From the NCBI RefSeq assembly GCF_058153355.1, contig NZ_CM177019.1: 64,000 nt of DNA; one strand, written 5' to 3'. The notes beneath the pieces were generated by a model. The model saw only the letters and a list, made by a program, of their open reading frames with translations. It was not told where the DNA came from and ran no database searches. This document shows, one piece after another, positions 10,414 to 53,314 of the stretch; the stretch's first letter is position 1; the number at the start of each line of letters is the position of its first letter. Both the position numbers and the translations under genes were made by a program.

Positions 10414-10857
10414 ATGGTTATTAGTATTCGCCGCTCACGGCATGAGGAAGGGGAAGAACTGGTTGCGATTTGGTGCCGTTCTGTCGATGCCACTCACGAT
10501 TTTTTATCAGCAGAGTATCGGGCCGAGCTGGAAGAGCTGGTGCGTTCCTTCCTGCCGGAAGCGCCGTTGTGGGTCGCGGTTAATGAGCGGGATCGGCCGG
10601 TTGGGTTTATGTTGTTAAGTGGGCAGCATATGGATGCGCTGTTTATCGATCCTGATGTGCGCGGCTGCGGCGTGGGTCGGATGCTGGTGGAACATGCGCT
10701 CTCGATGGCACCGGAACTGACAACCAACGTTAATGAGCAAAATACGCAGGCGGTGGGGTTCTATAAAACGATGGGGTTTAAGGTTACGGGACGCTCGGCA
10801 GTTGACGATTTGGGGAAACCGTATCCGTTGCTGAATCTGGCGTATGTGGAGGCGTAG
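10414..10857 (+). CDS. yjaB: GNAT-family N-acetyltransferase YjaB (147 aa)
   Basis: ORF 10414..10857; recognised as YjaB by sequence and position next to metA. Confidence 0.9.
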   Translation: MVISIRRSRHEEGEELVAIWCRSVDATHDFLSAEYRAELEELVRSFLPEAPLWVAVNERDRPVGFMLLSGQHMDALFIDPDVRGCGVGRMLVEHALSMAPELTTNVNEQNTQAVGFYKTMGFKVTGRSAVDDLGKPYPLLNLAYVEA

Positions 10858-10920
10858 GCAATTTTTTTCTCATCCCGGTGAGCTGAACTTCAGGTTTCGT
10901 ACCCACCAATGGTGACATGA

Positions 10921-11304
10921 TTATTTCTGCTTAAGCATTGCCATGACCGCACTATCACTGAGCACCACTGATTGCGCATGAATGTGGAAATGGCGATATT
11001 TCATTAACGTTGCACCAGCGACCACTTCATGAAGAATGCGTTCCTCAACCTGTGACAAACCGCCCTCATTCATTTCCAGTGCGCTCACAACAATATCCAT
11101 ACGTTTTGCTGGCAAAAAAGAGTACCAGGGTGAACGTGGGTGGAGTTGCAAAACAAGATCTTGCAGAACTTTTTCTGCAACAAAGAAATTGGCGATTAAC
11201 AGGCGCTGGTTACTGAAGGCAGCCTCTCCTGACACTTCACGTTTGCTTTCAAGATCGCGAACAGTAATTTGATTACGACGAATTTGGATATACAGAACTG
11301 ACAT
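10921..11304 (-). CDS. yjaA: stress-response protein YjaA (127 aa)
   Basis: ORF 10921..11340 minus; start assigned to internal ATG at 11302-11304 (MSVLYIQIRRNQ...) with gaaggga RBS. Confidence 0.8.
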   Translation of the reverse strand: MSVLYIQIRRNQITVRDLESKREVSGEAAFSNQRLLIANFFVAEKVLQDLVLQLHPRSPWYSFLPAKRMDIVVSALEMNEGGLSQVEERILHEVVAGATLMKYRHFHIHAQSVVLSDSAVMAMLKQK

Positions 11305-11335
11305 GAGATTCCCTTCATCATGCAAATAATTGATA

Positions 11336-11370
11336 TGCAAAAAACCCCGGCCTTATGGACCGGGGTTTTT
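11336..11370 (-). terminator. rrnE operon terminator
   Basis: aaaaaccccggccttatggaccggggttttt hairpin flanked by A/T runs immediately 3' of the 5S gene. Confidence 0.7.
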
Positions 11371-11378
11371 CTAATTTG

Positions 11379-11498
11379 ATGCCTGGCAGTTCCCTACTCT
11401 CGCATGGGGAGGCCCCACACTACCATCGGCGCTACGGCGTTTCACTTCTGAGTTCGGCATGGGGTCAGGTGGGACCACCGCGCTAAGGCCGCCAGGCA
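11379..11498 (-). rRNA. rrfE: 5S ribosomal RNA (rrnE operon)
   Basis: 120-nt match to E. coli 5S rRNA (reverse complement tgcctggcggcc...ctgccaggcat). Confidence 0.95.
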
Positions 11499-11684
11499 AA
11501 TTCCTGTGCTCTGTCCTGTGTCTTTTGTGCTGATACTGCGTTGGCTGCATTCGCGAAAATCAGTCACATACTTCAGTATGCTCCTTCCTTCGCTTCATTT
11601 GCCGCCTTGTCTCAGCGCAAAATCCTTCGGACTCTGGATCCAAGCTGAAATTCTCTCAATCCGCCAAAACACCTTCGGCGTTGT

Positions 11685-14589
<2,905 letters not shown>

Positions 14590-14773
14590 TCACAACCCGA
14601 AGATGTTTCACTTCTGATTGCGAAAATTTGAGAGACTCACGAACAACTTTCATTGTTCAGTGTTTCAATTTTCAGCTTGATCCAGATTTTTAAAGAGCAA
14701 ATATCTTAAACATGACTCGTAAGTCATCTTTAACGATATTAAGGTCGGCGACTTTCACTCACAAACCAGCAAG

Positions 14774-14849
14774 TGGCGTCCCCTAGGGGATTCGAACCCC
14801 TGTTACCGCCGTGAAAGGGCGGTGTCCTGGGCCTCTAGACGAAGGGGAC
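14774..14849 (-). tRNA. gltV: tRNA-Glu (UUC) in 16S-23S spacer
   Basis: Reverse complement gtccccttcgtctagaggcccaggacaccgccctttcacggcggtaacaggggttcgaatcccctaggggacgcca = tRNA-Glu. Confidence 0.95.
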
Positions 14850-14934
14850 GTATCAGTCTGCTTCGCAAGACGCCTTGCTTTTCACTTTCTATCAGACAAT
14901 CTGTGTGAGCACTGCAAAGAACAGTTCTTTAAGG

Positions 14935-16476
<1,542 letters not shown>

Positions 16477-52035: not shown

Positions 52036-53060
52036 GAAATCGTCTCCACTGCGCTAACTTCACCTGATGTACCAATAAAGCGAACTTCTGGCTCAAGCCA
52101 GACATTAAATTTTTCACCCACTTTCTGTCTTACATGATGTGCCAGCTGCACAATATCTTCGCTTTTTGCATTGCCTTCATTAATGAGAACTAACGCCTGT
52201 TGACGGTGTACCGCAGCCCCACCAATTTGTGTTCCTTTTAGCTGGCACTGATCGATAAGCCAACCAGCGGCCAGTTTTACTGAACCATCCGTCTGGGGAT
52301 AATTTGGTGCTGTTGGAAATTGTGCCAGTAATGCTTTAGCCGTTTCGGCAGATACAACAGGGTTTTTGAAGAAACTACCGGCATTGCCATTCACTTTTGG
52401 ATCAGGGAGTTTGGTGGTGCGCATATGACACACCGCATCAAATACTTGCTGTGGCGTTACGGTTGTAGGATCCAGACGAGTTAAGTCACCATACGTTAGT
52501 ACAGGTTGCCACTCTTTTGGCAGGCGCAGACCTACGGCTACAATGGCGAAGCGGTCCTGGTATTCATGTTTAAAAATACTGTCGCGATAGCCAAAACGGC
52601 ACTCTTTGGCAGTTAAGCGCACTTGCTTGCCTGTCGCCAGTTCGACACAGTCAACATAAGCGCAAACTCGCTGTAATTCTACGCCATAAGCACCAATATT
52701 CTGGATAGGTGATGAGCCGACACAACCAGGAATTAACGCCAGATTTTCCAGACCTGGCATACCTTCCTGCAAAGTGTATTTTACCAGTCGATGCCAGTTT
52801 TCTCCGGCTCCTACATGTAAATACCACGCATCAGGTTCATCATGAATTTCGATACCTTTGATCCGGTTGATGATCACCGTGCCGCGATAGTCTTCCAGAA
52901 AAAGTACATTACTTCCTTCACCCAGAATAAGAACGGGTTGCCCTTCTGCGGTTGCATGCTGCCAGGCATTGAGTAGTTGTTGTTCGTCTTCGGCACATAC
53001 AATGTGCTGAGCATTATGATCAATGCCAAATGTGTTCCAGGGTTTTAAGGAGTGGTTCAT
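52032..53060 (-). CDS. murB: UDP-N-acetylenolpyruvoylglucosamine reductase MurB (342 aa)
   Basis: ORF 52032..53060 minus; recognised as MurB; 4-bp overlap with birA. Confidence 0.95.
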
Positions 53061-53153
53061 AGCTGCTTTCCTGATGCAAAAACGAGGCTAGTTTACCGTA
53101 TCTGTGGGGGGATGGCTTGTAGTTATGACGACAGGGAGAGTTTGTAGAAACGC

Positions 53154-53180
53154 AAAAAGGCCCAGTCTTCCGACTGGGCC
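53154..53180 (-). terminator. rrnB operon terminator (single hairpin)
   Basis: aaaaaggcccagtcttccgactgggcc: GC stem with A-run on plus strand, 14 nt after the 5S 3' end. Confidence 0.7.
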
Positions 53181-53194
53181 TTCTGCTTAATTTG

Positions 53195-53314
53195 ATGCCT
53201 GGCAGTTCCCTACTCTCGCATGGGGAGACCCCACACTACCATCGGCGCTACGGCGTTTCACTTCTGAGTTCGGCATGGGGTCAGGTGGGACCACCGCGCT
53301 AAGGCCGCCAGGCA
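53195..53314 (-). rRNA. rrfB: 5S ribosomal RNA (rrnB operon)
   Basis: 120-nt match to E. coli 5S rRNA; differs from the rrnE copy at one position (53228 a vs 11412 g). Confidence 0.95.

Follow-up and report, generated by a model that had tools for sequence, protein, structure and literature searches.

In Escherichia coli, the small RNAs rrA, rrB and rrF lie between the terminators T1 and T2 of the ribosomal RNA (rRNA) operons rrnA, rrnB and rrnD, where they are made by read-through of T1 and are tied to rRNA transcription, at a much lower level (PMC8144298). In rrnB, T1 terminates 87% of the transcripts and T2 ~100%, and rrnE is among the four, out of the seven, E. coli rrn operons which carry a single terminator (PMC8144298). 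Read-through at E. coli termination sites is common, as 75% of them show at least 5% of it, and the energy of the hairpin is not predictive (PMC6131387).

In this work, the gene yjaA, which stands directly behind rrnE, was studied in a stretch of 64,000 nt of contig NZ_CM177019.1 (NCBI RefSeq assembly GCF_058153355.1). This whole stretch is referred to as the window, and all positions are counted from its first letter. Our reading, put forward tentatively and with somewhat less than even confidence, is that yjaA lacks a promoter of its own and relies on read-through of the rrnE terminator as its main source of mRNA.

Rfam detected two complete rRNA operons on the minus strand of the window. 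The one at 11381-16476 is rrnE by synteny, with yjaA, yjaB and metA downstream. The yjaA coding sequence, also on the minus strand, extends from its ATG at 11304..11302 to a stop at 10921 and has a product of 127 amino acids, which belongs to the YjaA family (NCBIfam NF041448, 175.6 bits against a cut-off of 125) and matches no Pfam family. A ribosomal link of the protein was considered and set aside, as the top Foldseek matches, to uS11, are weak (TM ~0.47, rmsd ~6 Å).

The ATG lies exactly 74 nt from the end of the 5S gene (11378..11305). This distance had been given by an earlier reading of the same DNA (hereafter, the sequence-only reading) and is confirmed with the ends of 5S fixed by alignment with E. 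coli MG1655, which shows the same 74-nt gap (rrfE end 4213159, yjaA start 4213234). The sequence of the gap is identical to that of E. coli K-12, K-12-like and N96 genomes. Along the minus strand, 5S is followed by CAAAUUAG, by AAAAA-CCCCGGUC-CAUAA-GGCCGGGG-UUUUUU (11370..11339), by GCAUAUCAAUUAUUUGCAUGAUGAAGGGAAUCUC, and then by the AUG at 11304..11302. The Shine-Dalgarno sequence GAAGGG (11316-11311) is placed 6 nt ahead of the ATG, and the distance from the U-tract to the ATG is only 34 nt. The features of the region are the following:

11379..11498, minus strand: rrfE, the final gene of rrnE, coding for 5S rRNA (Rfam RF00001 at 11496..11381, 92 bits; ends by 120-nt alignment with MG1655 rrfE/rrfB)
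11371..11378, minus strand: A/U-rich 3′ trailer of 5S, CAAAUUAG (from the sequence)
11339..11370, minus strand: rrnE intrinsic terminator of the K-12, yjaA-linked type (folding; one copy each in 2590 of the 5426 E. coli genomes)
11335..11340, minus strand: TTGCAT, a terminator tail within TTTTTGCAT (same tail after the rrnB terminator and the terminators of yjaA-less rrnE)
11305..11338, minus strand: yjaA leader of 34 nt, in which TTGCAT occurs again (11325-11320), together with the conserved block UGAUGAAGGG and the Shine-Dalgarno sequence (from the sequence)
10921..11304, minus strand: yjaA coding sequence, 127 amino acids (open reading frame, NF041448, RefSeq annotation of identical or near-identical loci)
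10858..10920, no strand: convergent spacer between yjaA and yjaB (fold z-scores -0.07 and +0.98)
10414..10857, plus strand: yjaB, a GNAT acetyltransferase gene convergent with yjaA (Pfam Acetyltransf_10/7/1, RefSeq annotation)
11417..11445, minus strand: sigma-70-like candidate inside 5S, GTGAAA-17-TGgTAGTGT (position weight matrix, 9.1 bits)

Among the rrn operons of MG1655, the next co-directional coding sequence is found at 74 nt for rrnE (yjaA), 162 nt for rrnH (dkgB), 300 nt for rrnB (murB) and 322 nt for rrnG (kgtP), and the neighbors of rrnA, rrnC and rrnD are convergent. The spacing of yjaA resembles that of a distal operon member and not that of an independent transcription unit.

The search for a promoter gave no site of its own for yjaA. 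The consensus sigma-70 scan of the minus strand between 10700 and 11700 returned no site, and within the 74-nt gap the best scores of the position weight matrix were 2.3-2.5 bits (TTTTTT-16-CATGAT and TAGGGA-17-TAGAAA), which is background: 4% of the window positions score 2 bits or more, and about three such scores are expected by chance per 74 nt. The matrix was built from the classical hexamer frequencies, and all its scores are approximate. No pair of -35 and -10 hexamers spaced by 16-18 nt rises above background in 11378..11305. The strongest sigma-70-like match of the region is located inside the 5S gene, upstream of the terminator (11445-11417), with 9.1 bits and an extended -10; scores of at least 8 bits are reached at 0.17% of positions, and the same match scores 9.13 in those orthologous 5S copies which reach far enough upstream. 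By inspection, no convincing match to the sigma-S, sigma-32 or sigma-E consensus was found.

The sequence-only reading had also pointed to a weak promoter formed by TTGCAT and an AT-rich stretch similar to a -10, between the hairpin and the ribosome binding site. This proposal fails on spacing, as the AT-rich stretch abuts TTGCAT (11340-11335) and the hexamers 16-18 nt away are ATGAAG, TGAAGG and GAAGGG. The motif shares its first two bases with the end of the U-tract and is part of TTTTTGC(A/G)T, the generic tail of rrn terminators, which is also found behind the rrnB hairpin of the window and, with no co-directional gene beyond it, behind the yjaA-less rrnE of O26, O157 and B strains.

Other candidates were rejected as well. 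As a sigma-54 element (GG-N10-GC), the -12-like TTGCA has no GG at the strict spacing when judged by eye. For a leaderless start, the hexamer at the -10 position, ~7 nt ahead of the ATG, is TGAAGG and matches at two of six bases, and the conserved Shine-Dalgarno sequence is found there instead. With CATGAT as the -10, transcription would start inside or after the Shine-Dalgarno sequence. An upstream ATG (11321) or TTG (11340) is not the true start codon, because the N-terminus of YjaA (M-x-x-L-Y-I-Q) is conserved from the annotated ATG. Nor is there a conserved upstream open reading frame: the upstream ATG shares the frame of yjaA in Kosakonia S29 but not in E. coli or Phytobacter.

The terminator between 5S and yjaA is composed of an A5 tract (11370-11366), a 5′ arm (11365-11358), the loop CAUAA (11357-11353), a 3′ arm (11352-11345) and a U6 tract (11344-11339). 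The stem has 8 bp, is GC-rich with one G·U pair and carries a loop of 5 nt. Folded together with its tracts it reaches -22 kcal/mol (z = -4.9), a stability matched by none of 200 shuffles, and the U tract follows directly 3′, as in intrinsic terminators. The sequence-only reading had drawn this terminator at 11336-11370; the hairpin stands, and the 3′ side was extended by 3 nt too many. Its d'Aubenton-Carafa score is ~31, with 11-39 for the other scored rrn terminators, and its T-tail score of 4.4 matches the height of theirs, both values coming from an approximate formula. The consensus terminator scan did not report the hairpin, probably because the maximal stem swallows the A and U tracts and no T run is left.

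The arrangement recurs beyond E. coli. One genome per species was scanned, and the loci retrieved lie nearly all 100-500 nt from a contig end. YjaA relatives with 39-96% identity are encoded at 17 loci of Enterobacterales, with a patchy distribution. The 5S gene is directly upstream of yjaA wherever the contig extends to it, and metA, with or without yjaB, is directly downstream in all the Enterobacterales yjaA loci. Judging from this gene order, 5S-yjaA-(yjaB)-metA is one conserved slot in ~19 enterobacterial lineages.

The gap from 5S to the ATG measures 69-93 nt in most of these lineages and is longer in Pectobacterium polonicum (120), Franconibacter (162) and Brenneria (199). From the U-tract to the start codon there are 30-51 nt in 15 of the ~19 lineages (E. 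coli, E. whittamii, UBA5654, Phytobacter, two Superficieibacter, three Kosakonia, Enterobacter, Citrobacter, Salmonella salamae, Samsonia, UBA3516 and P. fontis), for instance 30 nt in S. salamae and 40 nt in Citrobacter youngae. Each of the loci carries a GC hairpin of its own, with folding energies of -9 to -25 kcal/mol and T5-7 behind it. At least five hairpin sequences are unrelated to each other, and they differ in register and loop size, so each sequence was folded by itself instead of counting covariation on one common structure. In the alignment of 11 orthologous leaders, conservation is restricted to a block just 5′ of the ATG, UGAU(A/G)AA(A)GGA, which matches the extended Shine-Dalgarno sequence UAAGGA. 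The open reading frame, the Shine-Dalgarno sequence and the invariant residues of YjaA are maintained down to 39% identity.

Homologs from other bacteria are found in different surroundings. In Pseudomonas, they are divergent from a gene of a TauE-family exporter and a TANGO2-family gene begins 4 nt after them, and in Providencia a LytS/LytTR two-component pair precedes them and deaD faces them; neither neighborhood has an rRNA or tRNA nearby. From these comparisons, linkage to rRNA is a trait of the enterobacterial locus and not of the YjaA family.

Within E. coli, the 83-nt junction occurs as a single copy in 2590 of the 5426 complete genomes, being identical in 1520 and with one mismatch in 1070. 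In the one mismatched allele that was examined, M70, the first base of the loop is changed (C11357A). The remaining 2836 genomes have no yjaA, and the whole terminator-yjaA segment is replaced, with yjaB and metA retained (5396 genomes). In such strains, the interval from 5S to the yjaB stop holds a hairpin similar to T2 of rrnB and a REP-like sequence, and in E. coli B rrnE ends in a full T1-T2 pair. As far as these genomes tell, the presence or absence of yjaA is an exchange of the entire segment between the 5S trailer and the yjaB stop. Since the hairpin of yjaA-less genomes is a different one, the rrnE terminator known from K-12 belongs to the yjaA-containing allele.

Strain EC42405 is a hybrid. 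Its yjaA and leader are unchanged, its hairpin is replaced by one of rrnB type with the junction in TTTTTGCAT, and it probably arose through gene conversion between rrn operons. Because the hairpin was exchanged while the leader remained the same, yjaA can be retained without any promoter element specific to its hairpin. The leader is invariant among the seven E. coli and E. whittamii alleles compared, and the coding differences among E. coli alleles of yjaA fall mostly on third codon positions (e.g., 8 out of 12).

The sequence-only reading had argued that any promoter of yjaA must overlap the terminator or the 5S gene, or else read-through feeds the gene. This dilemma holds, given the short leader, the lack of a matrix or consensus site above background and the cramped layout in many genera. 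With no recognizable promoter and no room for one, basal yjaA mRNA would most likely come from read-through of rrnE. In fast growth, rrn promoters initiate about once per second, at which rate a leak of no more than 1% would equal an ordinary mRNA promoter. The polymerase in rrn operons is modified for antitermination, which suppresses NusA-stimulated pausing.

A small fraction of the rrnE polymerases would thus pass the hairpin into yjaA, and RNase E would cut the resulting RNA at its usual site behind 5S; the trailer CAAAUUAG presumably corresponds to the site b cut of the 9S RNA in rrnB. The yjaA mRNA released in this way would begin with the terminator hairpin, followed by the Shine-Dalgarno sequence and the ATG, and would be translated, with its expression following rRNA transcription. 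A stronger form of the proposal makes yjaA an obligate passenger of the rRNA operon, devoid of any promoter in most Enterobacterales, with an mRNA made only by leakage past the last rrn terminator and released by 5S processing, and with the hairpin acting as a protective structure similar to a 5′ cap. We consider this form rather unlikely. If it were true, YjaA would be made in a fixed small proportion to rRNA transcription. A more speculative variant holds that the hairpin releases polymerases which stay on the DNA and initiate anew nearby.

Several points weigh against dependence on read-through. The rrnE terminator itself looks strong and not leaky. In Phytobacter, yjaA is located 32 nt behind T2 of a dual terminator of the type T1-rrB-like-T2, and in K. 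quasisacchari two hairpins precede it; with T2 terminating ~100% of the transcripts in rrnB, such lineages would lose most of the read-through. The lineages with long gaps contain better promoter-like matches (TACAAT, TATTAT, TATAAT and TGTAAT, 5.6-8.6 bits), each within chance when taken individually. As the homologs of Pseudomonas and Providencia are unlinked to rRNA, the conserved position may be mere inherited synteny. Transcription of rrn normally falls under stress, and an induction of yjaA at that time would be better explained by a separate promoter. The gene is annotated as a stress-response gene, is described in the responses to H2O2 and acid, and is among those up-regulated under at least three stresses (PMC9501238). 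Finally, the published supplements searched gave neither a mapped start for yjaA nor a 3′ end for rrnE: those of the SMRT-Cappable-seq, Adams 2021 and Romero 2014 studies have no entry for yjaA/rrfE or for 42131xx-42132xx, an absence which is weak evidence.

The stress data fit a weak or factor-dependent promoter overlapping the terminator, with its -35 in the hairpin or U-tract, its -10 in the AT-rich ATATCAATTAT and a leader of ~17-20 nt, which would explain a stress induction independent of rRNA synthesis. Such a promoter is possible, though we hold it doubtful. It accords with TATCA(A/C), which E. coli, UBA5654, Citrobacter and Enterobacter carry 19-25 nt ahead of the ATG, with the extended -10-like TGcTATTGT or TGcTATGGT which abuts the U-tract in the divergent clade of Kosakonia and UBA3516 (5.3-6.6 bits), and with the fact that yjaA still follows the last hairpin where two terminators exist. 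However, the E. coli-type leader has no hexamer pair above background, TATCAA lacks the near-invariant T at -7, the matches of the other clades are individually within chance expectation, and the putative -35 would fall within hairpins which differ completely across lineages and among E. coli strains. Read-through and a weak overlapping promoter may also coexist. A start inside 5S (11445-11417) or, in other species, in the T1-T2 spacer, followed by passage through the terminator, would make use of the best matrix match of the region, with its extended -10, conserved because 5S is conserved; promoters internal to rrn operons are known in 16S (PMC5179076). We regard it as very improbable, since read-through of the terminator would still be required, the site would be occluded by very dense rrn transcription and is present in every 5S copy, hence not specific to yjaA, and no such report was found in the literature searched.

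It could also be that yjaA is barely expressed, a dispensable and repeatedly lost gene kept in place by neutral inherited synteny, with a gap shortened by deletion bias. The absence of the gene from more than half of the E. coli genomes (2836 of 5426), its patchy distribution in Enterobacterales, its GC content of 43-46%, lower than that of the neighboring genes, and the homologs without rRNA linkage all agree with this. On the contrary, the reading frame, the Shine-Dalgarno sequence and the invariant residues have been kept down to 39% identity, allele differences fall mostly at third positions (8 of 12 in the example above), and phenotypes and expression changes of yjaA have been published. 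This explanation is unlikely, clearly more so than an overlapping promoter. Dependence on read-through remains the reading we adopt, with the reserve expressed above.

In the spacer between yjaA and yjaB, no terminator-like hairpin was found on either strand by folding or by the terminator scan. Transcription which enters yjaA would therefore continue antisense into yjaB, and the two transcripts probably overlap antisense in an excludon-like manner. In the opposite direction, yjaB transcripts probably run antisense through yjaA as far as the rrnE hairpin. The A5/U6 symmetry makes this hairpin terminator-like on the plus strand too, where it folds with -21.3 kcal/mol and is followed by UUUUUCU. 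Owing to this symmetry, it should also stop antisense transcription toward rrnE.

Some further observations concern the rRNA operons themselves. The rrfE of the window has a C at 5S position 87 (window 11412, GGGGCCUCCCC), where the rrfB of the window and both MG1655 copies have a U, and its positions 12-13 read CU in place of AG in MG1655. The rrnB of the window (53058-53195, minus strand) ends in a single T2-like terminator, with neither T1 nor the region of the rrB sRNA. The sequence ahead of yjaA in Phytobacter can be aligned to the T1-T2 spacer of E. coli, which holds rrB. At the operon equivalent to rrnE, therefore, neither an rrB-like element nor a dual terminator is restricted to Escherichia.

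The present results do not overturn current understanding, as read-through is already known to be pervasive and the rrnE-yjaA arrangement is annotated in every K-12 record. If read-through is indeed the only route to yjaA expression, the gene would serve as a natural reporter of the tightness of rrn termination against antitermination-modified polymerase, and its "regulation" in microarray and RNA-seq data would partly reflect rRNA transcription and terminator efficiency and not a stress promoter. For Clermont phylotyping, the polymorphism of the marker yjaA corresponds to a swap in which terminator and gene are exchanged together as the entire stretch from 5S to yjaB.

Among known systems, the bidirectional terminators between convergent genes share with rrnE the A-tract, the GC hairpin and the U-tract which fold equally on both strands. 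In rrnE, however, yjaA lies between the hairpin and the convergent partner yjaB, whose end is 480 nt away, unlike the yjaA-less strains, where a different hairpin stands directly between 5S and yjaB. The essential gene murB, behind rrnB, is likewise a co-directional protein gene set apart only by rrn terminators. Its ATG (53060 in the window) follows 5S by 134 nt, compared with 300 nt in MG1655. The space kept by murB, given as 96 nt in this strain and ~300 nt in MG1655, leaves room for its own promoter, whereas yjaA begins only 34 nt after the U-tract. The operon extensions revealed by SMRT-Cappable-seq, in which downstream genes join a unit through partial read-through of an intrinsic terminator, are the process proposed here for yjaA (PMC6131387). 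The difference is that the unit upstream of yjaA is a stable-RNA operon with antitermination-modified polymerase, and no rrnE-yjaA transcript appears in the supplementary data searched from that study. The closest parallel is offered by rrA, rrB and rrF. Like these sRNA genes, which have no promoter of their own, yjaA is co-directional and located just behind an rrn terminator, 34 nt past the U-tract. It differs in that it encodes a protein of 127 amino acids, shares no sequence with them, follows the sole terminator of the E. coli rrnE and has no second terminator (T2) downstream; read-through is known for the sRNAs and predicted for yjaA. Were the rrnE terminator the only route to its expression, yjaA would be a protein-coding counterpart of these sRNAs.
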